Origin: a virus
Taxonomy: Duplodnaviria; Heunggongvirae; Uroviricota; Caudoviricetes
Strand: one strand, 5' to 3'
Virus record (IMG/VR): IMGVR_UViG_2698536618_000012
Coordinates: 1 to 8,626 of that record
Length of the DNA: 8,626 bases
Both the position numbers and the translations under genes were made by a program. This document shows positions 1 to 8,626 of this stretch, one piece after another. The first letter of the stretch is position 1. Every line of letters begins with the position of its first letter. The notes under the pieces were generated by a model. The model had not been told where the DNA came from. It made no database searches and saw only the letters and a list, made by a program, of their open reading frames with translations.

Positions 1-303
1 GAGGATGACCCTCGTAATCAGGTTAATTTTCTTTATGAGCCATCGGAAAGACCATATTGTCATCACGCCTCTGTTCGGGTTGACGAAAAAGAGCGTCAGG
101 TCCGCTGTAAAATCTGCGGTGCAGTTGTGGAGCCATTTGACTGGATGCTCTCTGTGGCGAAAAGAGAAACCAGACTGGCAGATGATGTAAGGCACTTGCG
201 CCAGGAGGAGCGGGAAAGGCGAAAAAATATAGAAAAGCTAATTCAGATTGAGCGTAACGCGAAAGCGCGGATACGCAGGGCGACAAAATCCAGAACTGAA
301 TAA
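1..303 (+). CDS. 3' part of a hypothetical phage protein (5' end outside window); Cys/His zinc-ribbon-like motif followed by a charged, coiled-coil-like tail
   Basis: Frame 1 is open from base 1 to TAA at 301-303 (100 codons). Translation ...YCHHASVRVDEKERQVRCKICGAVVEPFDW...RHLRQEEREGRKNIEKLIQIERNAKARIRRA is protein-like. The overlapping track ORFs 5..190(+) and 23..355(-) look less protein-like. No family recognised. Confidence 0.45.
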   Translation, partial: EDDPRNQVNFLYEPSERPYCHHASVRVDEKERQVRCKICGAVVEPFDWMLSVAKRETRLADDVRHLRQEERERRKNIEKLIQIERNAKARIRRATKSRTE

Positions 304-396
304 TTAAATTTAGCTCTGTTAAAAATTTAATCCTTAACCGGAGGGATTTCTGCACCCTCAGAACATCAGGAGGCCGCCCGAAAGGGCGGTAGTTAA

Positions 397-579
397 ATGC
401 GAAAGTTTAAAATAATTATTGAAACGGGAATAGCCGGTGGAGATTTCGAGGATGAATTCGAAGTGGATGATGATGCGACGCCTGATGAAATACATGACGA
501 AGCAAAAGATATTTTCTTTAACTACTGCAATTACTCATATCACGAAATAAAAGACGAAGAGGAAGAGCAAAATGGCTGA
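397..579 (+). CDS. hypothetical small acidic protein (60 aa)
   Basis: ORF from the track; ATG at 397 follows an in-frame stop. Its stop overlaps the start of the next ORF (ATG 572 / TGA 577-579). Very acidic composition typical of small nin-region phage ORFs. Confidence 0.45.
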   Translation: MRKFKIIIETGIAGGDFEDEFEVDDDATPDEIHDEAKDIFFNYCNYSYHEIKDEEEEQNG

Positions 580-748
580 TTTTGGTTCAACTAAATACAA
601 CGTCAGTTTTGAAGCATGGCATGAACTGTTAATGGACTATGCAGAGTTACGTGGTGGCAGTGCTGCTGATGCTGAAGCATGGCGTGATGATTATGAAGCA
701 GGAAAAACTCCGGTCGAAGCATATTGTGATGAGTGGGGCGATGAATGA
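572..748 (+). CDS. hypothetical small acidic protein (58 aa), translationally coupled on both sides
   Basis: Own translation: MADFGSTKYNVSFEAWHELLMDYAELRGGSAADAEAWRDDYEAGKTPVEAYCDEWGDE. Its stop TGA 746-748 overlaps ATG 745 of the next ORF (ATGA). Absent from the track only because it is under 60 aa. Confidence 0.4.
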   Translation: MADFGSTKYNVSFEAWHELLMDYAELRGGSAADAEAWRDDYEAGKTPVEAYCDEWGDE

Positions 749-1260
749 GCGAGATTAATTATCAGGAAGGGCATGAAACGGCAGGGCAGGCAAAACCAGT
801 TGCATGGCGATATCGCTACGTGAAAAAAGACGTTACAGACTTTCAGGGGAAGCCGTGGGCTGGTGACTGGAAATATGTACCGACAAAAGAGGATTGTAAC
901 GACAGGCCGAACTATGAAATTCAGGCCTTATTCATCGGCCCGCCAGTCCCGGTGACATCAGAAGGACTGGTTAAAGCCGTGCGCTTTTATGAACAGGTAA
1001 AGCGTGAGAATCCGCCAGTCGAAACAGGAGCATGGAAGGATGCTGTTGACTGGGTGCTCAGAGAGGCCTGCTGCGCTGCCATTCTGGGTAAAGCCGACAA
1101 TCCACCAGCATCCGGCAATCAGGTTAGCGAATTAACAATGTGGGTTAAACGACTGGTCAGTCAACTGAAAAAAGCGCAGCCGGACTGCAAATTACCGGAG
1201 AAGGCGATGGATTACCTGAAACGAAATGGACTGATAAGCGTGGAGGATGTTTTACGATGA
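745..1260 (+). CDS. hypothetical phage protein (171 aa)
   Basis: Long ORF with ATGA start/stop coupling to the upstream ORF; no recognisable family motif. Confidence 0.55.
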   Translation: MSEINYQEGHETAGQAKPVAWRYRYVKKDVTDFQGKPWAGDWKYVPTKEDCNDRPNYEIQALFIGPPVPVTSEGLVKAVRFYEQVKRENPPVETGAWKDAVDWVLREACCAAILGKADNPPASGNQVSELTMWVKRLVSQLKKAQPDCKLPEKAMDYLKRNGLISVEDVLR

Positions 1261-1380
1261 ATATTTAGACTAAAGAATTTGTAACGCTATGTAAGTGATT
1301 TTTTCTGGTTTAGATATTTATATGTCCGGCCAAATTGAGGTGTGTTTAAATGTTATTGCACATTGATTGTAGGGGGAATA

Positions 1381-1560
1381 ATGAAAAACGCATTGCAGTT
1401 TTTGTTTGTTGCGTTCTGGTTGTTCGCATCATGTATGCCCATCATCTTCACAGCAAGGTATATGGAAAAAATTGATGTTTTGATATTAATGTTTGGACAT
1501 ATAAATGCCCTTTTTTTAGGGGTGTTCATGGCGGTCATGTGCATTGAATACTGGCGGTAA
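1381..1560 (+). CDS. hypothetical small membrane protein (59 aa) in an AT-rich segment
   Basis: ATG at 1381 preceded by SD-like GGGGG (1372-1376). Translation MKNALQFLFVAFWLFASCMPIIFTARYMEKIDVLILMFGHINALFLGVFMAVMCIEYWR has two hydrophobic segments. AT-richness also allows spurious ORFs here. Confidence 0.35.
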   Translation: MKNALQFLFVAFWLFASCMPIIFTARYMEKIDVLILMFGHINALFLGVFMAVMCIEYWR

Positions 1561-1614
1561 ATACAGCGAACGCCATTGGTTTAGTTGGATATTTACTGTG
1601 CCGGACAAAAACGG

Positions 1615-1643
1615 TTTGCGGGGAAATCTTAGTTAAGTAGAAT
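1615..1643 (+). promoter_or_regulatory. candidate sigma70 promoter for the hok mRNA (-35 TTTGCG, 17-nt spacer, -10 TAGAAT 1638-1643)
   Basis: The -10 hexamer is a good match and the -35 is weak. The predicted start near 1650 puts the 9-nt box TGCGGGTGC (1647-1655) at the 5' end of the transcript, and this box is complementary to 2031-2039 near the 3' end. Confidence 0.3.
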
Positions 1644-1818
1644 AACTGCGGGTGCTTGAGGCTATCTGTCTCAGGCATGAACACCAAAAGGCAGATAGAG
1701 AAAAGCCCCAGTTAACATTACGCGTCCTGCAAGACGCTTAACATTAATCTGAGGCCATATCTATGCGACACATAGAGATTAGCCTCTTACGGACCGAAAG
1801 GTCAAGGAGAAGCAGGCT

Positions 1819-1974
1819 ATGAAGCAGCAAAAGGCGATGTTAATCGCCCTGATCGTCATCTGTTTAACCGTCATAGTGACGGCACTGGTAACGAGGAAAG
1901 ACCTCTGCGAGGTACGAATCCGAACCGGCCAGACGGAGGTCGCTGTCTTCACAGCTTACGAACCTGAGGAGTAA
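1819..1974 (+). CDS. hokD: Hok/Gef-family type I toxin (51 aa)
   Basis: Own translation MKQQKAMLIALIVICLTVIVTALVTRKDLCEVRIRTGQTEVAVFTAYEPEE matches the Hok/Gef family signature (single TM helix then TRKDLCEV..R..GQTEVAVF.AYE); to my recollection it matches HokD (RelF) of the E. coli Qin prophage. Confidence 0.88.
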   Translation: MKQQKAMLIALIVICLTVIVTALVTRKDLCEVRIRTGQTEVAVFTAYEPEE

Positions 1975-1981
1975 GAGACCC

Positions 1982-2003
1982 GGCGAGGGAGAAATCCCTC
2001 GCC
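1982..2003 (+). other. perfect 9-bp stem with GAAA tetraloop immediately 3' of hok (GGCGAGGGA-gaaa-TCCCTCGCC)
   Basis: Read directly from the sequence. It sits where hok mRNAs carry their 3' fold-back (fbi) structures. Confidence 0.6.
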
Positions 2004-2042
2004 ACCTCTGATGTGGCAGGCATTCTCAACGCACCCGCACTT

Positions 2043-2070
2043 AACCCGCTTCGGCGGGTTTTTGTTTTTA
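2043..2070 (+). terminator. intrinsic terminator of the hok transcript
   Basis: AACCCGC-ttcg-GCGGGTT: 7-bp stem with UUCG loop, followed by TTTTTGTTTTTATTTT. Confidence 0.75.
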
Positions 2071-2082
2071 TTTTCAACGCAT

Positions 2083-2112
2083 TTGAAGTTCTGGACGGTG
2101 CCGGAATAGAAT
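2083..2112 (+). promoter_or_regulatory. candidate sigma70 promoter upstream of the rem-like gene (-35 TTGAAG 2083-2088, 18-nt spacer, -10 TAGAAT 2107-2112)
   Basis: Hexamers read by eye; lies just downstream of the hok terminator. Confidence 0.3.
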
Positions 2113-2190
2113 CAAAAATACTTAAGTAGCGCGCAGGGATAAGAGGGATGGTCCCTTAAAGGGGAGAGCTAATTATCCGGAAGGATTCTG

Positions 2191-2442
2191 ATGATGAACA
2201 TCGAAGAACTGCGTAAAATTTTTTGTGAAGATGGCCTCTATGCTGTGTGCGTTGAAAATGGAAATATTGTTAGTCATTACCGCATTGTGTGTTTGCAAAA
2301 AAATGGGGCTGCGTTAATTAATTTTGTGGATGCCCGAGTGACGGACGGATTTATCTTGCGCGACGGTGAGTTTGTCACTTCATTACAGGTATTGAAAGAG
2401 ATCGGAATAAAAGCTGGCTTTTCTGCTTTTTCAGAAGAATAA
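2191..2442 (+). CDS. rem: small hypothetical prophage protein (83 aa), Rem-like by size and position
   Basis: ORF with SD-like GGAAGGA upstream. Symbol is assigned by recalled synteny only (hokD - rem - ydfU in K-12 Qin, rem being 83 aa), not by sequence comparison. Confidence 0.5.
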   Translation: MMNIEELRKIFCEDGLYAVCVENGNIVSHYRIVCLQKNGAALINFVDARVTDGFILRDGEFVTSLQVLKEIGIKAGFSAFSEE

Positions 2443-2508
2443 ACTCATCTACAATCTTGCGCGGGGCTGAACTCCCGCTGAGTAACACCGTGCCACCGGA
2501 GAAAACCG

Positions 2509-2787
2509 ATGGCACGCAACGCAAAATATTACAAACATGATAATTCGACCGTTCTTGCCCACACGCACGAGCGGTATTCTCACGCATTTAAGTCAGACTG
2601 GTACCAGCATCCCCCATGCACTGAAGAACAGGCCGAATGGCTCATTCAGTGTTACCGCAGGCGCGGATGCGAGGTTAAAAAAGCCCTTAGCCTCGACTAC
2701 CGTCACTGGATAATCTCCGTCAGGCTTCCTTACTCCGAACACCCACCGCGTCCGTCCCGCACATTCCAGCAACGCATCTGGAGGTAA
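2509..2787 (+). CDS. hypothetical Cys/His-rich small protein (92 aa), possibly metal-binding
   Basis: GGAG 9 nt upstream of ATG 2509; its stop abuts the next gene's SD and start. Contains H..H...C..C..C. May correspond to the DUF1364-type small proteins of nin regions, but that is unverified. Confidence 0.5.
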   Translation: MARNAKYYKHDNSTVLAHTHERYSHAFKSDWYQHPPCTEEQAEWLIQCYRRRGCEVKKALSLDYRHWIISVRLPYSEHPPRPSRTFQQRIWR

Positions 2788-2788
2788 C

Positions 2789-3838
2789 GTGCGGGTATTA
2801 CTTCGACCTGTTCTGGTACCGGAACTCGGGCTGGTGATCGTTAAGCCGGGCCGTGAATCCATGCCGGTATTCCACAATACCCGGGTACTGGTGGAGCCGG
2901 AACCGAAAAGCATGCGTAATCTGCCGTCCGGGGTCGTTCCTGCCGTTCGCCAGCCGCTGGCGGAGGATAAATCATTACTGCCATTTTTCAGCGACGAACG
3001 AGTGATTCGTGCTGCTGGTGGCGCTGGCGCATTGTCTGACTGGTTACTGCGCCATGTTAAATCCTGCCAGTGGCCACACGGCGATTATCACCACAGTGAA
3101 ACCGTCATTCACCGTTATGGTACCGGCGCAATGGTGTTGTGCTGGCACTGCGACAACCAGTTGCGTGATCAGACCTCCGAATCACTTGAGCAACTTGCTC
3201 ACCGAAACTTGTCAGCATGGATGATTGACGTCATTCGTCACGCAATGAATGGCACACAGGAGCGTGAATTATCGCTGGCTGAATTATCCTGGTGGGCGGC
3301 CTGCAATCAGGTGGTGGATGCACTACCTGAGGCAGTAGCGCGTCGTTCGCTGGGATTACCAGCGGAAAAAATCCGCTCCGTATACCGTGAGAGTGACATC
3401 GTACCGGGAGAACAGACAGCCATCAGCATACTGAAGCAGCGCACAAAAAATATTGCGCTGCCACTTCACGTCCACCAGCAACAAAATCCACCACAGAAAA
3501 AAACGGTTGTCAGTATCGCCGTTGATCCGGAGTCTCCTGAATCGTTCATGAGGCGACCTAAACGTTGCCGTTGGGTTAATGAGAAATACACGCGCTGGGT
3601 AAAGACACAGCCGTGTGCGTGTTGTGGTAAGCCTGCTGACGATCCGCATCACCTGATTGGTCATGGTCAGGGGGGAATGGGGACAAAGGCCCACGATATT
3701 TTCACGCTACCGTTGTGCCGGGAGCACCACAACGAACTTCATGCAGACCCGCTGGAGTTTGAGAAAAAGTACGGCTCTCAGATTGAGTTAATTTTTCGTT
3801 TTCTTGATCACGCCTTTGCAACTGGCGTGCTTGGGTAA
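2789..3838 (+). CDS. ydfU: DUF968/YdfU-like prophage protein (349 aa) with a C-terminal HNH-like Cys/His motif (putative nuclease)
   Basis: GTG start 2789 with GGAGG 4 nt upstream. C-terminal PCACCGKPADDPHHLIGHGQGG...LPLCREHHNELH is HNH/zinc-finger-like; a second Cys/His cluster is CQWPHGDYHH...CWHCDNQ. Length and position upstream of rusA fit the YdfU/DUF968 family as I recall it. Confidence 0.75.
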   Translation: MRVLLRPVLVPELGLVIVKPGRESMPVFHNTRVLVEPEPKSMRNLPSGVVPAVRQPLAEDKSLLPFFSDERVIRAAGGAGALSDWLLRHVKSCQWPHGDYHHSETVIHRYGTGAMVLCWHCDNQLRDQTSESLEQLAHRNLSAWMIDVIRHAMNGTQERELSLAELSWWAACNQVVDALPEAVARRSLGLPAEKIRSVYRESDIVPGEQTAISILKQRTKNIALPLHVHQQQNPPQKKTVVSIAVDPESPESFMRRPKRCRWVNEKYTRWVKTQPCACCGKPADDPHHLIGHGQGGMGTKAHDIFTLPLCREHHNELHADPLEFEKKYGSQIELIFRFLDHAFATGVLG

Positions 3839-3850
3839 AAGAGGTGACTG

Positions 3851-4210
3851 ATGCTCATAGATTTGGTTTTACCTTACCCGCCGACGGTGAACACTTACTG
3901 GCGACGCCGTGGCAGCACATATTTTATCTCGGAGGAGGGAAAGCGTTATCGCCGGGCTGTGGCGCTTATTGTTCGCCAGCAGCGGCTGAAATTAAGCCTG
4001 TCCGGAAGGCTGGCGATAAAGGTGATTGCAGAGCCACCGGATAAGCGTCGTCGCGACCTGGACAACATTCTGAAAGCACCGCTGGATGCGCTGACGCATG
4101 CGGGAGTGCTCATTGATGATGAGCAGTTTGATGAAATCAATATTGTACGTGGTCAGCCAGTATCTGGTGGACGGCTGGGTGTGAAGATTTACAAAATTGA
4201 GAGTGAGTGA
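3851..4210 (+). CDS. rusA: RusA-family Holliday junction resolvase (crossover junction endodeoxyribonuclease)
   Basis: 119 aa with SD AGAGG 7 nt upstream. Translation carries the RusA hallmarks (N-terminal LPYPPTVNTYWRRRG, catalytic-region RRRDLDN, C-terminal GG.L...I) and aligns by eye with E. coli RusA. Confidence 0.9.
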   Translation: MLIDLVLPYPPTVNTYWRRRGSTYFISEEGKRYRRAVALIVRQQRLKLSLSGRLAIKVIAEPPDKRRRDLDNILKAPLDALTHAGVLIDDEQFDEINIVRGQPVSGGRLGVKIYKIESE

Positions 4211-4218
4211 GCGTAAAT

Positions 4219-4749
4219 ATGATATATCCGGAAATTACAGGCAAAAGCGGCGAACATTTACGCCTGAACACGCTGGAAGCAGTCTGGATCCAGGGGAAAT
4301 TACGGATGTGGGGGCGGTGGTCGTATATCGGTGGGGGTAAATCCGGAAATATGTTTAACCGGTTACTGGTTTCGAAAAAGCTGACGAAAACAGCAGTTAA
4401 TGAGGTTTTACGCAGAATGAAGAAATCCGGGCTGGAAAAACCGGAACTTGAGGCATTTTTTCGGGATATGACAAGAGGAAAGCAGAAGAGCTGGTTGTCA
4501 CATTGTACAGACACAGAGGCGTTGATTATTGATCGCGTTATCAGTGAGGTGCTTGGGGAATATCCCGGGCTAATCAATATTCTCCGGCAAAGGTACGAAG
4601 GACGGGGAATGAGTAAGAGAAAAATGGCAGAATGTTTAAATCGTACTCACCCGGAATGGTGTTTCAGCACATGTGAGAAACGTATTGCAGGTTGGTTAGC
4701 CGTGGCTGAACACATGCTTTATGTACCTATGCACGATTCATTTCGATAA
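4219..4749 (+). CDS. putative late-gene antiterminator (Q-like) protein, 176 aa; functional assignment is positional
   Basis: ORF immediately downstream of rusA (the canonical Q position in lambdoid phages) and followed by a hairpin-rich leader and strong intrinsic terminator. ATG 4219 is preferred over GTG 4207, which overlaps the rusA stop. No Q-family motif could be verified by eye. Confidence 0.55.
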   Translation: MIYPEITGKSGEHLRLNTLEAVWIQGKLRMWGRWSYIGGGKSGNMFNRLLVSKKLTKTAVNEVLRRMKKSGLEKPELEAFFRDMTRGKQKSWLSHCTDTEALIIDRVISEVLGEYPGLINILRQRYEGRGMSKRKMAECLNRTHPEWCFSTCEKRIAGWLAVAEHMLYVPMHDSFR

Positions 4750-4845
4750 AAAAAGCTTGCTTTTTTACGCAGAAACAGCTTGAATTCCTGTAAGCTTCGC
4801 AAAGCTGTATCGCGAGGCGAAATGCAAGTTTTTTCGCACAAGGAA

Positions 4846-4867
4846 GCCACCGGAAGGTGGTTTTTTT
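4846..4867 (+). terminator. strong intrinsic terminator after the Q-like gene (tR'-like)
   Basis: GCCACC-ggaa-GGTGG(T) stem followed by TTTTTTT. Preceded by another hairpin, GCGAAA-tgcaagttt-TTTCGC (4817-4837). Confidence 0.75.
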
Positions 4868-4990
4868 GTGTCCGTAATATACAGCAGCGCAATAAATTCG
4901 CTGGTGGTTATTAATACCGTTCTTTCAGCTTGCTGGCTTTTTCGACAAGAGTTATTGGTGTGTCACGTTAACCGGAAAAGGGAAAAAGGC

Positions 4991-5188
4991 ATGCTAAAAC
5001 AGCAGGATATGACCGAAACCGCCAGAGTGGTGTTTAATGAATTAAGCGTCACCGAACCGGCGACCGTCGAGGAAATTGCGCAGAACACTTATCTTTCACG
5101 CGAACGCTGCCAGTTAATACTGACCCAGCTTGTTATGGCGGGTCTGGCAGATTATCAGTTCGGTTGTTACAGACGCCTTCCTCAGTGA
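4991..5188 (+). CDS. small winged-helix DNA-binding protein (65 aa), PapI/FaeA-like or controller-like regulator
   Basis: Internal ATG of track ORF 4868..5188 with SD AAGGGAAAAAGG. TVEEIAQNTYLSRERCQLILTQLVMAGLADYQFGCYRRL has a helix-turn-helix-wing pattern. The GTG-extended N-terminus (4868-4990) looks non-coding. Confidence 0.5.
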   Translation: MLKQQDMTETARVVFNELSVTEPATVEEIAQNTYLSRERCQLILTQLVMAGLADYQFGCYRRLPQ

Positions 5189-5198
5189 AGGCTTTTTT
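5175..5198 (+). terminator. intrinsic terminator overlapping the stop codon of the wHTH gene
   Basis: GCCTTC-ctcagt-GAAGGC: 6-bp stem followed by TTTTTTATTT. Confidence 0.6.
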
Positions 5199-5338
5199 AT
5201 TTGTGGTAATGGGCGGCTGGTGGGTGTTAGCGGCACCTGCCAGCCATCTGCTCATGCGTTGGGGTCACAAGCAAACCTCAGGCCCATCTGCTTTGCGCAA
5301 AAGCGGTATGAGCCTATCAGAGAAGTGCTTATTGATCT

Positions 5339-6418
5339 ATGGCTAATACTGTAAAAATATCCAGTTGTGAGTTAATCAACGCTGATTGCCTGGAATTTAT
5401 CCAGACCTTACCGGAAAACTCTGTCGATCTGATAGTCACAGACCCGCCATACTTTAAAGTGAAGCCCGAGGGCTGGGATAACCAGTGGAAGGGCGACGAT
5501 GATTACCTGAAGTGGCTGGACCAGTGTCTGGCGCAGTTCTGGCGGGTGCTGAAACCTGCCGGAAGTCTTTACCTGTTCTGTGGCCATCGCCTGGCATCTG
5601 ATATCGAAATCATGATGCGTGAACGCTTCAGTGTGCTGAACCATATTATCTGGGCGAAGCCGTCCGGACGCTGGAACGGATGCAACAAGGAAAGCCTGCG
5701 GGCGTATTTCCCCGCCACAGAGCGCATTCTGTTCGCGGAACATTATCAGGGGCCGTATCGTCCGAAAGATGCCGGGTATGCGGCGAAGGGCAGTGCACTG
5801 AAACAGCATGTGATGGCCCCGCTGATTTCTTACTTTCGTGATGCGCGTGCTGCTCTGGGGATAACGGCAAAACAGATTGCAGATGCCACAGGAAAGAAAA
5901 ACATGGTGTCGCACTGGTTCAGTGCCAGTCAGTGGCAGCTACCGAACGAAAGCGATTATCTGAAATTACAGTCGCTGTTTGCCCGGGTGGCAGAAGAGAA
6001 ACATCAGCGGGGTGAACTGGAAAAGCCACATCACCAACTGGTCAGCACATACAGTGAGCTGAACCGGCAAAACCGGCAATATGCCAGCCTGCTGGAGGAG
6101 TACAAATCTTTGCGGCGTTATTTTTCTGTATCGGCTGCTGTTCCGTATACGGATGTCTGGATGTATAAGCCTGTACAGTATTATCCGGGCAAACACCCCT
6201 GTGAAAAACCGGCAGATATGTTGCGTCAGATAATAGAGGCCAGCAGTCGTCCGGGTGATTTGGTTGCCGACTTTTTTATGGGGTCAGGTTCCACGATAAA
6301 AGCCGCGCTTTCGCTTGGTCGTCGGGCAATAGGCGTTGAGCTTGAGGCTGAACGGTTTGAGCAGACGGTGAGCGAGATAAGAGAAATTCTGACGTGTAAA
6401 GCTGTTGAAAATATATAA
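5339..6418 (+). CDS. orphan beta-class DNA methyltransferase (N6_N4_Mtase family; DPPY motif suggests N6-adenine)
   Basis: 359 aa. Catalytic motif IV DLIVTDPPYF lies near the N-terminus and the AdoMet-binding motif I DFFMGSGST near the C-terminus, with a roughly 200-aa target-recognition region between. This is the beta-class order, and overall architecture resembles YhdJ-like adenine methyltransferases. No restriction endonuclease gene is evident nearby. Confidence 0.9.
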   Translation: MANTVKISSCELINADCLEFIQTLPENSVDLIVTDPPYFKVKPEGWDNQWKGDDDYLKWLDQCLAQFWRVLKPAGSLYLFCGHRLASDIEIMMRERFSVLNHIIWAKPSGRWNGCNKESLRAYFPATERILFAEHYQGPYRPKDAGYAAKGSALKQHVMAPLISYFRDARAALGITAKQIADATGKKNMVSHWFSASQWQLPNESDYLKLQSLFARVAEEKHQRGELEKPHHQLVSTYSELNRQNRQYASLLEEYKSLRRYFSVSAAVPYTDVWMYKPVQYYPGKHPCEKPADMLRQIIEASSRPGDLVADFFMGSGSTIKAALSLGRRAIGVELEAERFEQTVSEIREILTCKAVENI

Positions 6419-6480
6419 GTATGGGGTGTAAAGTTGTTCTCGAAAATAATCATGTTTTCTCACGAATCAGAGGGGGGATA

Positions 6481-6741
6481 ATGATTGAGGTTCGATGGAC
6501 AAGGACAGCCCTGAAGCAGTTACTTCGTGTGGATACGCGGTATCGGCAGGCGATAAAGGATAAGGTCGGTGCGCTAAAGGATTTTCCTCTGGTAGCCATG
6601 GATTTTAAAAAGCTATCAGGGAGTGACAATCGATTCCGTTTGAGGGTCGGCGTGTACAGGGTTATTTTTGATGTTGAGGATGGTGATCCTGTTGTCCTGG
6701 ATATTAAGGAAATTAAGCGCAGAAGCACAACCACATACTAA
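6481..6741 (+). CDS. type II toxin, RelE/ParE superfamily (toxin-first, HigB-like gene order)
   Basis: ATG 6481 with strong SD GAGGGGGG 5 nt upstream. The 86-aa product has the RelE/ParE pattern (..RFRLRVGVYRVIFDVEDGDPVVLDIKEIKRR...Y). The track ORF start at 6421 is probably an over-extension. Confidence 0.8.
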   Translation: MIEVRWTRTALKQLLRVDTRYRQAIKDKVGALKDFPLVAMDFKKLSGSDNRFRLRVGVYRVIFDVEDGDPVVLDIKEIKRRSTTTY

Positions 6742-6801
6742 GGGAGGCTGGCGGGAGACCGCCAGTTTGCTGAACGACATTCAATCGCGAAAGGCAATGA
6801 T

Positions 6802-7176
6802 ATGAAAAACAGTGTCCAGTTTATTACTGATAATGCCGGTGTTAGAACCGGGGTCATTATGTCAGTTGCTGAATATGAACGGCTGTTAAGTCTGGCAGAT
6901 CCTGATGATGATTTTGAAAGCATCCAGTATGAAGCCGGAGAGCATGACAATGAAACAATACCTCATGAAGTAGTATCCATCATGATTGATGATGATGTGT
7001 CATTGTTGGCAGCATGGCGGATTTACAGGCGAATGACTCAACAGGAAGTGGCGGAGCGCCTGGGGGTTAAACAGTCAGCCGTATCTCAGTTTGAGAGAGC
7101 AGGAGCTCCGCGAAAATCAACACTGGAAAAACTGGCTGAGATTTACAACTGCCGACCAAATCAGTTGGCTGATTAA
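6802..7176 (+). CDS. antitoxin with N-terminal Phd/YefM-like segment and C-terminal XRE-type HTH (124 aa)
   Basis: AAGG 7 nt upstream of ATG. N-terminus NAGVRTGVIMSVAEYERLLSL resembles the YefM/Phd motif; C-terminus LLAAWRIYRRMTQQEVAERLGVKQSAVSQFERAG...LEKLAEIY is a classic HTH_XRE. Lies directly downstream of the toxin. Confidence 0.8.
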   Translation: MKNSVQFITDNAGVRTGVIMSVAEYERLLSLADPDDDFESIQYEAGEHDNETIPHEVVSIMIDDDVSLLAAWRIYRRMTQQEVAERLGVKQSAVSQFERAGAPRKSTLEKLAEIYNCRPNQLAD

Positions 7177-7321
7177 TCCTGAGTTTGGTTTTCGTAGCGA
7201 TTGCATTTTTCTTATCTGCTTGCCGTTGTAGGTAGCGTGTATTTGCATGTTGTTTTGTAGTTAACCTTATGGTTGGCTGAATTTTGTTCATCAATAAAAA
7301 ATATCCCTCTCTGATCTTTAA

Positions 7322-7346
7322 GGTTCGCTTTGGCGGACCTTTTTTT
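7322..7346 (+). terminator. intrinsic terminator downstream of the toxin-antitoxin pair
   Basis: GGTTCGC-tttg-GCGGACC: 7-bp stem including one G-U pair, followed by TTTTTTT. Confidence 0.7.
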
Positions 7347-7482
7347 ATTTCCGCGCCACGCCCGGCGTACATCAAAAACCACAGAGCCTTTCAGGGGTGA
7401 GCTTACGGGATGGTCAGTGTGACTTTCTCTGTGGGCTGGTCACCCCCGGGCGCAGGCTCACCCACTAAAAGGAAAAGTCACG

Positions 7483-7914
7483 ATGTTTGGTATTTTCAAA
7501 AAGAAAACCCGCAGAGCAGCAACTGAAATTAAAAAGTTTGAGAAACGCGATCTGGCACAGGCGGTTATTAATGCTGCCTACCTGGTGGCCTATGCAGATG
7601 GTGAATGTGAGACTTCAGAGAAAGTGAAGATCGAACAGGTATTACGTAACCAGCCAGCATTGTCCGCATTTACGTCAGAAATTAATGCCATCAGTGCCAC
7701 GATCACAGGTCAGCTTGACACCAATTTTAAAATTGGTCGTCGTGCAGCGTTGCGTGAAATTGAAGATGTGAAACACGATACGCGTGAAGCGGAAGATGTG
7801 CTGGATGTGGCGGTGGCCATTGCTGAAGCAGATGGTGAAATTGAGCCGGAAGAGCGTAAGGTTCTGGAAGAGATTGCTGGTGTTCTTGGCCTGCGACTGG
7901 AGAACCACCTGTGA
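7483..7914 (+). CDS. TerB-domain protein (tellurite-resistance TerB-like, 143 aa)
   Basis: SD AAGGA 8 nt upstream. Two copies of the TerB-type helical motif (hydrophobic-x-A-x-A-D-G-x-acidic...E-K/R): AAYLVAYADGECETSEKVKIEQVL and DVAVAIAEADGEIEPEERKVLEEIAGVLGL. Confidence 0.7.
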   Translation: MFGIFKKKTRRAATEIKKFEKRDLAQAVINAAYLVAYADGECETSEKVKIEQVLRNQPALSAFTSEINAISATITGQLDTNFKIGRRAALREIEDVKHDTREAEDVLDVAVAIAEADGEIEPEERKVLEEIAGVLGLRLENHL

Positions 7915-8078
7915 CGGTAAAACTGCGTCTGGCCGCTGTGGCACTCCTGCTGTTTCTGGTGGTGATGGTGGATTTCACCAGCAGGATCATGTCGGTGCTG
8001 GCGGATGGAGTGCTGGTCTGCGGCATTGTGGTATTGCTGTGGCCGGTGATAAAAAGAAACAGCCTGCATAATGCTTGA
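7911..8078 (+). CDS. small two-helix membrane peptide (55 aa), translationally coupled to the TerB-like gene
   Basis: GTG 7911 overlaps the TerB stop (GTGA); GGAGAA sits 6 nt upstream. Own translation VTVKLRLAAVALLLFLVVMVDFTSRIMSVLADGVLVCGIVVLLWPVIKRNSLHNA shows two hydrophobic stretches. Not in the track (under 60 aa); an alternative start at ATG 7965 would give 37 aa. Confidence 0.45.
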   Translation: MTVKLRLAAVALLLFLVVMVDFTSRIMSVLADGVLVCGIVVLLWPVIKRNSLHNA

Positions 8079-8243
8079 TTTTTTTGTTTGCTGTTTATTA
8101 AAAACACTTCTGCATGGTGAATCCCCCTGTGCGGTGGGGCAATCAGCAAGAAGGAATATGGGGTAATCGCGGATTCAGGTGCTGATACTGAATTCACCGG
8201 GAGGCACCCGGCACCATGCAAGAAAAAGAATGTGCATGCAAAC

Positions 8244-8271
8244 ATGCCCCTCTCCGGAGGGGCATTTTTTA
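8244..8271 (+). terminator. strong intrinsic terminator (9-bp stem ATGCCCCTC-tccg-GAGGGGCAT followed by TTTTTT)
   Basis: Read directly from the sequence. An adjacent hairpin GCCCGAA-tggg-TTCGGGC (8284-8301), preceded by AAAAAA, would act as a terminator for the opposite strand, so the pair may be bidirectional. Confidence 0.7.
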
Positions 8272-8363
8272 TGGGTAAAAAATGCCCGAATGGGTTCGGG
8301 CAATAGCATGAGATACTGATATTGTTGTGTTGTTATCGTGTGGATTTTAACCAGGGTTTATCA

Positions 8364-8389
8364 GGCTGCGCAACTGCGTGGCCTTTTTT
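8364..8389 (+). terminator. candidate intrinsic terminator (8-bp stem with two G-U pairs, loop AACT, followed by TTTTTT)
   Basis: GGCTGCGC-aact-GCGTGGCC followed by TTTTTTC; a second terminator only about 95 nt after the previous one. Confidence 0.5.
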
Positions 8390-8396
8390 CATTTCT

Positions 8397-8443
8397 TGGG
8401 CTGTAGTCCCCGTGTGTCATTCAGGCTTCCGGACTACAGCCCA
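8397..8443. repeat. 13-bp perfect inverted repeat with 21-nt spacer (TGGGCTGTAGTCC ... GGACTACAGCCCA)
   Basis: Read directly from the sequence; lies about 45 nt upstream of the ATG at 8486. Confidence 0.7.
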
Positions 8444-8485
8444 CTCCATATCTGATTTAATACACTATCCCGGCCGGGAGGAATA

Positions 8486-8626
8486 ATGACATTTAAACAT
8501 TATGATGTTGTCAGGGCGGCGTCGCCGTCAGACCTTGCGGAAAAGCTGACACACAAACTGAAAGAGGGCTGGCAGCCGTTTGGTAGTCCGGTGGCCATAA
8601 CCCCTTATACCCTGATGCAGGCGATT
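8486..8626 (+). CDS. 5' part of a hypothetical phage protein (continues beyond the window)
   Basis: ATG 8486 with SD GGGAGG 4 nt upstream; open to the window end. Translation MTFKHYDVVRAASPSDLAEKLTHKLKEGWQPFGSPVAITPYTLMQAI. May be a DUF1737-type small protein found near lysis cassettes, but this is unverified. Confidence 0.6.
   Translation, partial: MTFKHYDVVRAASPSDLAEKLTHKLKEGWQPFGSPVAITPYTLMQAI

Follow-up and report, generated by a model that had tools for sequence, protein, structure and literature searches.

A widespread, pseudoknotted RNA leader family of phage cargo genes with predicted pairing of the Shine-Dalgarno sequence

The DNA considered here (the window) comprises positions 1 to 8,626, that is 8,626 nucleotides (nt), of the IMG/VR virus record IMGVR_UViG_2698536618_000012 and represents the early-right/late-left region of a lambdoid Escherichia coli prophage. 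Between an intrinsic terminator and a gene of the TerB/TciA family, it contains a leader that, judged by comparison with its relatives, is one copy (7351-7482) of a widespread, uncatalogued family of phage RNA leaders of ~130 nt. Comparison among the variants establishes the family, its predicted helices and two pseudoknots, the consensus pairing of the Shine-Dalgarno (SD) sequence, and the genomic slot. An earlier sequence-only reading of the window had already described a structured leader here; this holds, but the predicted fold is a double pseudoknot and not a simple hairpin. The explanation that we favour, with slightly better than even confidence, is that the leader would fold on itself and lock the SD sequence (in the enterobacterial types also the start region), would be made only by read-through of a terminator, and would thereby set or gate translation of the cargo gene downstream.

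More than 300 loci were gathered by TerB-based and pattern-based retrieval. Among the complete E. coli genomes, 1219 of 5426 carry the leader, at 2637 places and with up to six copies per genome; RefSeq annotates nothing under these copies among the matches listed. Homologous leaders occur in Franconibacter, Pantoea, Pseudescherichia, Citrobacter and Enterobacter genomes, in Klebsiella phages, in hundreds of IMG/VR prophage contigs (>120 viral contigs) and, at ~71% identity, in lytic Erwinia jumbo phages (Huxley, Caitlin, Asesino, ChrisDB and others). For many copies, identity exceeds 95%. A covariance model (CM) built from an alignment of 47 distinct variants (A1) matched the Erwinia copies at 50-59 bits and also recognised, at 30-49 bits, a strongly diverged class ("type 2") located at a distance of 2.6-5 kb downstream within the same prophages. 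Phage PPyecE_EH1910 (L001) has a second, strongly diverged leader at 13678-13817 (47.9 bits) between endolysin and Rz, directly after a terminator and before a P22_AR_N antirepressor gene. A second leader is probably present in the window's own prophage too, ~4.4 kb beyond the TerB leader and outside the window. The Qin and DLP12 prophages of K-12 contain no copy at E up to 0.01, so that K-12 data sets are unusable for the leader.

An Rfam scan, which the sequence-only reading had suggested, assigns the leader to no Rfam 15 family. With gathering thresholds, the whole window matches only STnc100, sok and AgvB, all outside the leader; positions 7150-7550, scanned at E up to 10, gave only chance-level matches (≤18.5 bits), and the Erwinia and type-2 loci gave only transfer RNA (tRNA) and STnc100. 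A description of the leader was not found in the searched literature, the coverage of which is incomplete. Leaders that sequester a ribosome-binding site (RBS) are already known, whereas this particular fold, the breadth of its distribution and its employment as a module for cargo genes appear to be new. Two further records, Actinobacillus phage vB_Apl-pPE4 (H35) and a 700-nt contig of Kocuria sabuli (L024), contain a near-identical E. coli-type leader with TerB and look like contamination or mis-assignment. The search pattern GTAGAGCCTTTCGGGGG had six matches, two of which (L240, L243) lie in coding sequence without the rest of the element and were treated as chance.

The fold was worked out from the variants (coordinates in Table 1). 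Its 5' hairpin, P0, is 99.6% paired in A1 through GC, GU, CG and AU pairs; in other types the stem reads CUGUC/GACAG, CACAUC/GAUGUG, and UGCGC/GCGCA or CCGCC/GGCGG, and the loop either stays unchanged or varies together with its partner strand. Loop and partner coincide with two palindromes listed in the sequence-only reading. One of them, CCCGGG, is found at 7445-7450 as described; the other, CGCCCGGCG, exists but sits at 7359-7367, two bases to the left of the 7361-7369 given for it. The two are complementary to each other and constitute the strands of a conserved long-range pairing, the pseudoknot PK0, which is 99.6% paired and in which one pair is UA in 33 variants and CG in 13. In the window, PK0 reads CGCCCGG/CCGGGCG; elsewhere it is CGCUC/GAGCG, CGUCCGG/CUGGGCG, GGCUC/GAGCC, UCUCAC/GUGAGA, UCGCAC/GUGCGA, UCGUAC/GUACGA, UCGCAU/AUGCGA or UUCGCGU/ACGCGAA. 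The second pseudoknot, P1, is 93.9% paired in A1 and is replaced by CCAUGGAG/CUCCAUGG in L196, by CCGUAGAG/CUCUACGG in the Erwinia jumbo phages and by AACCACAA/UUGUGGUU in the G type. Its type-2 variants are GAAAG/CUUUC, GAGAG/CUCUC, CGAUA/UAUCG and CAAGAGC/GCUCUUG; CACAGAA/UUCUGUG is also seen. The linker between P0 and P1 is A/U-rich.

The main hairpin is built on P2. This is the 10-bp helix GGGTGAGCTT (7395-7404) with AGGCTCACCC (7454-7463), including one G-U pair, that the sequence-only reading had singled out; it is present and conserved, being 94.5% paired in the 47 variants, with a change from UU/AG to CA/UG, and takes the diverged form GAUGACCCUUG/CAAGGUUCAUC in the second leader of L001. 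The run of G at the 5' end of P2 (equivalent to window 7394-7397) varies from 4 to 11 G in L085, L158, L057 and the B type, which reflects either homopolymer slippage shifting the register of P2 or assembly error. Inside P2, a GTGAC/GTCAC helix (7419-7423/7439-7443) had been proposed. The two strands are there and are complementary, but the pairing is not conserved: only 72.7% of it is paired and its last (closing) pair is kept in 6 of 47 variants, so that it was rejected as a conserved element. In relatives, GUGAC has another partner, the GUCAC next to the AUG (P5, below). P3, in which the window has an A-C mismatch and two G-U pairs, is 86.5% paired in A1 with four pairs changed on both sides, shows double changes in 10 of its 11 pairs in the CM-aligned set A4, and reads GGCAAA/UUUGCC, GGGAA/UUCCC or GGGAU/AUCCC in type 2. 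P4, a small hairpin, overlaps the 5' strands of P3 and P5 and cannot form with either, because the bases are shared. P5 is a perfect 8-bp helix in the window, pairing GUGAC(UUU) with (AAA)GUCAC directly before the AUG; it is 86.5% paired in A1, covaries in the G type (AUUACGUC/GACGUAAU, UUCGUC/GACGAA, UUGCGUC/GACGUAA), shows one-sided gains of pairs in L125 and L129, and is absent in Erwinia and in most type-2 copies. Types A-G, J and K, a narrow sampling, have few fixed unpaired positions in common, namely CA or CG before P2 and the SD sequence. A leader peptide was considered and rejected, as the frame of the ATG at 7410 is not kept in the alignments of the B or C types.

The SD sequence itself forms the 3' strand of the basal helix. 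According to the sequence-only reading, the right arm of the 10-bp helix ended about 7 nt before the SD sequence and the leader might sequester the RBS. The measured gap to AAGGA (7469-7473) is 5 nt, and the SD sequence is indeed paired in the consensus; the anti-SD strand, however, is CCUUU at 7387-7391 and not the right arm. It extends the base of P2. Across the 47 variants, CCUUU:AAAGG is 97.9% paired and shows only C-to-U wobble changes; the flanking pair A7393-U7466 is G-C in the B and J types (AU:32, GC:7). The helix also appears in the single-sequence minimum free energy (MFE) fold of six of eight types, the MFE ranging from -40 to -57 kcal/mol across the types folded.

Several controls support the structure. 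The composite tested on A1 combined the nested helices P0, SD helix, P2 and P3 with the crossing P1 and P5. It has 92.1% of its cells paired, compared with 39-47% when the 3' partners are slid, and 16 of its pairs have changed on both sides, compared with 7.1±1.6 in shuffles, a number that none of 500 shuffles reaches. P0, P2 and the extended anti-SD:SD helix also emerge independently from RNAalifold. Since loop lengths and registers differ between types, P1 and PK0 were followed across all types by explicit arm tables and a self-versus-cross/shuffle test. In this alignment-free comparison, strands and their own partners form perfect Watson-Crick runs of 5-7 nt in PK0 and 5-8 nt in P1, as opposed to 2.8 and 3.7 nt with shuffled partners. 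Of 105 type-2 copies, 102 have PK0 and 103 have P1 paired over the full length, and compensatory variants occur. G-U intermediates occur, e.g. UCGUAC with GUGCGA and GAGAG with CUUUC, which argues for RNA rather than duplex DNA. An all-against-all search for column covariation in a MAFFT alignment was dropped, as it was dominated by a few divergent G-type rows and by misalignment.

The leader is a module of its own, because leader and coding sequence (CDS) recombine independently. Compared with L037, the window is 86% identical in the leader and 99% in the CDS; compared with L018, it is 97% identical in the leader and 61% in the CDS (43% at the protein level). Homology with other E. coli prophages starts at window position 7321, i.e. 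at the terminator. Upstream of it the relatives are unalignable (~50% identity), whereas the leader retains at least 80%, and most relatives have a GC hairpin and T-run of varied sequence at the terminator spot. Most copies precede TerB-DUF3927. The leader of L167 stands before a TAXI/NMT1-like (NMT1_3) solute-binding protein related to one in the Erwinia jumbo phages, that of L187 before a secreted protein, and others before the P22_AR_N antirepressor (L001), a family-2 glycosyltransferase and several proteins without a Pfam match. A type-2 pattern scan yielded at least 93 distinct leaders among the 101 loci analysed and at least 8 recurring families of downstream proteins. The downstream genes thus lack functional coherence, and their breadth argues against a metabolite riboswitch and for a generic portable expression element.

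Some copies are interrupted by insertions. In L235 (phage PPompW_132418; 3499-3573, 3539-4997), the IS110-family element ISEc20 is inserted inside the leader directly after CCUUUCGGGGG (~window 7397), and neither the remainder of the leader nor TerB nor the lysis genes are present; the same junction is found in at least 11 PPompW or Stx2a phage records. In the G-type loci L112 (1354-1442, minus strand), L161 (10553-10641) and L154 (2004-2059), a homing-endonuclease gene with HNH_3 and AP2 domains is inserted after P0 and CCACAG, leaving a 5' remnant of the old leader upstream of it. L112 has a complete, diverged leader 12 nt after the endonuclease stop codon.

The surroundings of the leader suggest how it is transcribed. 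The terminator that had been placed upstream of it is recovered by the terminator scan, and the absence of an obvious sigma70 promoter is likewise borne out: no sigma70-like site lies in 6700-8626, compared with a mean of 2.3 in shuffled sequence. Inside the leader, the promoter scan found no sigma70, sigma54 or sigmaE promoter. Candidates picked by eye had the wrong spacing or were not conserved, and resemblances to RfaH ops and to lambda boxA/boxB were loose and seen by eye only; all were discarded. P0 begins ~6 nt after the T-run of the terminator and covaries as RNA, from which we infer that transcription starts further upstream. The leader is not itself a terminator, as the 3' arm of P2 is followed by ACUAAAAGGAAAAG and the terminator scan finds nothing between 7347 and 8243. 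At least three terminator-like hairpins lie between Q and TerB, at 4846-4867, 5175-5192 and 7320-7341. Together with Q, the putative pR'-tR' and the lack of a predicted promoter, they fit the dependence on read-through or antitermination that the sequence-only reading had considered, and by position it is well supported that the cassette would be reached in this way.

Position also suggests where such a transcript would begin. Judged by eye, the 118 nt after the Q stop codon (4749) are similar to the segment next to Q in L059, and 4750-4867 probably encodes a short constitutive pR' RNA that is StxS-like by position; the promoter scan found no consensus promoter in this segment, and the exact -35/-10 of pR' is not assignable. 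In L009, the order is Q stop, TTGACA-17-TATTCT (by eye), ~65 nt, terminator and leader. In L059, L098 and phage JLK-2012, the cassette follows Q and tRNAs, the order in JLK-2012 being Q, tRNAs, tciA-tciB, esterase and S-R-Rz. Upstream of position 4754 in L167, TTGACG-17-TATAAT (by eye) is followed by ~110 nt, a terminator and then the leader, a layout that matches a gene for a short terminated RNA or a small RNA (sRNA). The slot downstream of Q is the one held by stx in Shiga toxin (Stx) phages. It is known as the pR' moron site of enterohaemorrhagic E. coli (EHEC) prophages, with convergent sRNAs downstream (PMC4104026), and pR' is constitutive and terminated at tR' in lysogens (PMC7547250). 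A strict moron has been defined as a gene with its own promoter and terminator (Juhala et al. 2000, as cited in PMC4104026). The cassette is inserted in a conserved phage operon and variably present, following Q, methylase, AraC, helix-turn-helix (HTH), HNH or tRNA genes depending on the prophage; a promoter of its own is lacking in the scanned interval. The sRNAs PasA, PasC and PasD were ruled out as the leader, since they are located elsewhere and flank the esterase gene.

In Erwinia jumbo phages, the leader follows tRNA-Cys without an adjacent terminator, which ties its role to the downstream gene and not to lambdoid termination. In L231-L238, tRNA-Trp, a small open reading frame (ORF), tRNA-Cys, the leader, TerB and a 60-aa protein lie ~1.1-1.6 kb from the left end of the genome; this arrangement is conserved in these lytic phages of ~240 kb and often includes a TAXI solute-binding protein.

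Taken together, the leader would travel with phage cargo genes ("morons") without its own promoter and would be made only when RNA polymerase passes the upstream terminators. In the window's prophage, Q-modified transcription from pR', just after Q, would make it; in the Erwinia jumbo phages, it would be co-transcribed with the upstream tRNA. As the comparison among relatives shows, the basal helix CCUUU:AAAGG continues into P2 and P3, PK0 and P1 anchor the 5' part to this main hairpin, and the 8 nt before the AUG can additionally pair with the apical loop in the enterobacterial types (P5). Folded in this way, the leader would keep the RBS locked, and translation of TerB-TciB would be set by the ease with which the lock opens, largely independently of the upstream sequence. 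The ribosome itself, temperature, a protein or an RNase are candidate openers. All helices could coexist if P1 and P3 formed one stack (~19 bp) beside a second one of SD helix and P2 (~18 bp), the two being joined by a direct a-to-b connection at one end and by the P2/P3/PK0 junction at the other. Only tentatively can a further step be proposed, in which the leader would represent a new class of structured regulatory RNA, a portable double-pseudoknotted gate that answers a specific signal and decides cargo translation at the moron site of the stx type. It would be common to more than a thousand E. coli genomes, prophages of other Enterobacterales and the Erwinia jumbo phages. Conceivable signals are a protein of the phage or the host, an ion, a small molecule, folding kinetics under the Q-modified polymerase, and self-cleavage.

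A number of observations weigh against the locked-SD explanation. Taken alone, the window does not fold significantly better than expected (z = -1.28 for 7347-7500 and -1.04 for 7390-7490). Its single-sequence MFE fold lacks the 10-bp helix P2, differs from the consensus and was set aside; in the window and in the B type, the MFE fold uses another pairing and leaves the SD sequence 62% unpaired by prediction. The SD helix has 5 bp only and shows wobbles without full covariation, because the SD strand is constrained. In A4, the nested part is 93.4% paired and has double changes in 23 of 33 pairs, compared with 12.5±1.7 in shuffles, but this result leans towards structure, because the alignment was fitted to the model. 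Among 16 representatives, every helix is fully paired despite differing sequences, the arms in this table having been picked by eye. Counts of compensatory "cells" are not independent events, because the sequences are related and many are near-identical. P3, P4 and P5 share bases, so that not all proposed pairings form at once, and the coexistence of P1 with the SD helix is deduced geometrically from helix lengths alone.

Other explanations have been considered beside this one. The fold around the RBS may be a translational operator, at which a bound protein of the phage or of the host traps the 30S subunit or keeps it away. This is rather unlikely but compatible with the locked-SD explanation, not exclusive of it. 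P1 and PK0 cross the SD-based hairpin and P5 lies before the AUG, so that pseudoknots include or abut the RBS and the start region; the helices covary while few unpaired bases are fixed, as would suit recognition of a shape rather than a small-molecule pocket; and the same leader stands before unrelated genes in one prophage, as expected with a shared regulator. No candidate protein has been identified, however, and no regulator shared between lytic Erwinia jumbo phages and lambdoid prophages is evident. A thermometer or riboswitch, the other possibility raised by the sequence-only reading, would alternate between two states, one closed by the SD helix, P3 and P5 and the other open, with P4 formed and the SD sequence free. 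The mutual exclusion of P3, P4 and P5, each more than 86% paired, would suit such a switch, as would, for a thermometer, the short helix of U-rich CCUUU and AAAGG by an internal loop, which resembles fourU, and the gut pathogens that serve as hosts. Yet two pseudoknots in ~130 nt of GC-rich RNA at ~-50 kcal/mol are unlike the short, marginally stable hairpin of a fourU element, which melts between 30 and 42 °C, P5 is missing in Erwinia and in most type-2 copies, very few unpaired positions are invariant across types, and the unrelated downstream genes speak against a single metabolite. The thermometer or riboswitch is accordingly improbable, and a metabolite riboswitch in particular unlikely, as the diverged copies precede unrelated genes.

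Equally improbable is a role in RNA processing or insulation, in which a self-cleaving ribozyme or an RNase III/E site would free the cargo mRNA from the long upstream transcript or tRNA and leave it with a 5' end that is both defined and protected. Folding as a double pseudoknot is typical of small ribozymes, a long irregular hairpin could serve as an RNase III substrate, the P0-P1 linker is A/U-rich, and the leader lies at module boundaries, directly after a terminator or tRNA. Against this, no Rfam ribozyme (including HDV-like, twister, hammerhead, pistol and hatchet) matched even at E up to 10, an invariant unpaired set such as that of ribozyme cores is missing, and the conserved SD pairing would be left unexplained. 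The element could also act at the DNA level, as a recombination linker or a target site for module exchange, homing endonuclease or insertion sequence (IS), with incidental inverted repeats. Mosaic junctions at both leader ends and the HNH-AP2 endonuclease gene and ISEc20 inside the leader of some phages would agree with this, but compensatory changes preserve pairing over 40-90 nt, including crossing pairs and G-U intermediates, which is an RNA signature, and the orientation to the downstream gene and SD sequence is always the same. Such a DNA element is therefore very improbable. That the structure arose by chance in a GC-rich spacer and was conserved through recent kinship of the prophages is scarcely credible: it would account for the single-sequence z of -1.0 to -1.3 and for the many near-identical copies, but every helix persists, in altered sequence, in the ~71%-identical Erwinia copies and the more diverged type-2 copies, the controls by shuffling and sliding disagree with it, and the flanks have diverged to ~50% identity beside a leader of ≥80%.

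Table 1. Features of the window; all helices of the leader are predictions.
Feature	Position	Strand	Remarks
hok/sok	1650-1821	+	sok antitoxin RNA/hok leader match, 106.7 bits
DUF968 gene	between hok/sok and RusA		
RusA gene	3851-4210		
Q-type antiterminator gene	4207-4749	+	Pfam DUF1133 and Phage_antitermQ
Small winged-helix ORF	after Q		
Q-proximal segment	4750-4867	+	putative pR' short transcript and tR'; ends in hairpin CCACCGGAAGGUGG and U7 (4846-4867)
DNA methylase gene	5339-6418		
ParE/RelE toxin gene	6421-6741		
HTH protein gene	6802-7176		
Intrinsic terminator	7320-7347	+	terminator scan; stem 7320-7341, then T-run; ends RelE/HTH module
Leader region in question	7347-7482	+	family match 7351-7482
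P0, 5' hairpin GCGCC/GGCGU, loop ACGCCC	7353-7368	+	7353-7357 with 7364-7368
PK0 5' strand, P0 loop CGCCC	7359-7363	+	extendable to 7365; pairs with 7448-7452
P1 5' strand CCACAGAG	7379-7386	+	immediately 5' of anti-SD; pseudoknot with 7427-7434
Anti-SD CCUUU	7387-7391	+	pairs with AAAGG 7468-7472
P2 5' strand GGGUGAGCUU	7395-7404	+	left arm of the 10-bp helix
P3 5' strand GGGAUGGUCAG	7407-7417	+	pairs with 7436-7446
P4, small alternative hairpin AUGGUC/GACUUU	7410-7426	+	weak in the window; 91.1% paired in A1
P5 5' strand GUGACUUU	7419-7426	+	pairs with 7474-7481; enterobacterial types only
P1 3' strand CUCUGUGG	7427-7434	+	apical loop of main hairpin
P3 3' strand CUGGUCACCCC	7436-7446	+	
PK0 3' strand GGGCG	7448-7452	+	3'-side internal loop (J) between P3 and P2; CCCGGG region
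P2 3' strand AGGCUCACCC	7454-7463	+	right arm of the 10-bp helix
SD region AAAGGA	7468-7473	+	3' strand of basal helix
P5 3' strand AAAGUCAC	7474-7481	+	between SD and start codon
TerB/TciA-family gene	7483-7914	+	putative regulated cargo; Pfam TerB 3.2e-15; annotated TerB or TciA in relatives
DUF3927/TciB small membrane protein	7911-8078	+	Pfam DUF3927 1.7e-16; overlaps TerB stop
STnc100 sRNA	8083-8276	+	Rfam, 139 bits
AgvB sRNA	8338-8277	-	Rfam, 96.5 bits
DUF1737 gene	8486 onward		

The gene order was read from Pfam and RefSeq annotation. Over positions 7100-8100, the window shares 99.8% identity with several E. coli chromosomes and 99.3% with phage PPyecE_EH1910, and a near-identical chromosome has hokD annotated at the equivalent of window 1650-1821. 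STnc100 and AgvB converge directly after TciB, which is the published layout of the EHEC prophage pR' moron site; a CATAAT at ~8067-8072, inside the 3' end of tciB, could by eye be a -10 element for STnc100. In close relatives, the DUF1737 gene is followed by a sialate esterase and then by the S-R-Rz lysis genes. The AT-rich stretch from the HTH gene to the terminator (7177-7350, plus strand) has a folding z of -2.9, two of 200 shuffles being as good, and holds additional weak hairpins at 7216-7235 and 7258-7279. It could be a structured 3' untranslated region or a 3'-derived sRNA of the toxin-antitoxin operon; its sole Rfam match, TarB at E = 0.44, is essentially the terminator alone.

If the fold works as proposed, about one fifth of the complete E. 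coli genomes would contain an unannotated regulatory RNA, often in several copies, at the prophage position where Stx phages carry Shiga toxin. Cargo genes already gated by Q antitermination would thereby come under a second layer of control. As a module spread over unrelated genes and over lytic as well as temperate phages, the leader would be a natural "insulated" expression cassette of interest to phage biology and synthetic biology, and RNA structural biology would gain a compact fold whose covariation is well supported and which includes two long-range pairings.

Among known systems, the pR' moron site shares the slot and its logic with the window: Q, a short terminated RNA, cargo, convergent sRNAs and lysis genes (PMC4104026, PMC7547250). 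These two publications cover the sRNAs and the terminated pR' transcript, and a structured cargo leader was not found in them. In the window, the cargo at this pR'-type slot consists of the methylase, the toxin-antitoxin pair and TerB-TciB, followed by STnc100/AgvB and DUF1737. The put RNA of phage HK022, a cis-acting processive antiterminator of two stem-loops, lies between the promoter and the terminators it suppresses. Like put, the leader is a structured cis-acting RNA in a lambdoid transcript that is linked to terminator read-through; unlike put, it follows the terminator, includes the SD sequence and is pseudoknotted, and its Erwinia copies have no adjacent terminator. Known RNA thermometers such as fourU and ROSE are short, weak hairpins, which the leader resembles in the pairing of its SD sequence with a U-rich strand and from which it differs in size, GC content and pseudoknots. 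The translational riboswitches preQ1-II and SAM-II likewise contain pseudoknots. They have in common with the leader an SD sequence buried in a pseudoknotted fold and possible alternative pairings, whereas the leader has no coherent set of downstream genes, few invariant unpaired nucleotides and no Rfam match. Translational operators are found in the E. coli alpha-operon (rpsM) leader, which binds S4, and in the leader pseudoknot of gene 32 of T4, also a phage. Both are pseudoknotted 5' leaders at an RBS that control initiation in cis, as is proposed here. They have no sequence or Rfam relation to the phage leader, for which no binding protein is known. In the phage leader, moreover, the loop of a 5' hairpin docks into an internal loop and the 5' flank into the apical loop, and many unrelated genes are served by the same element.

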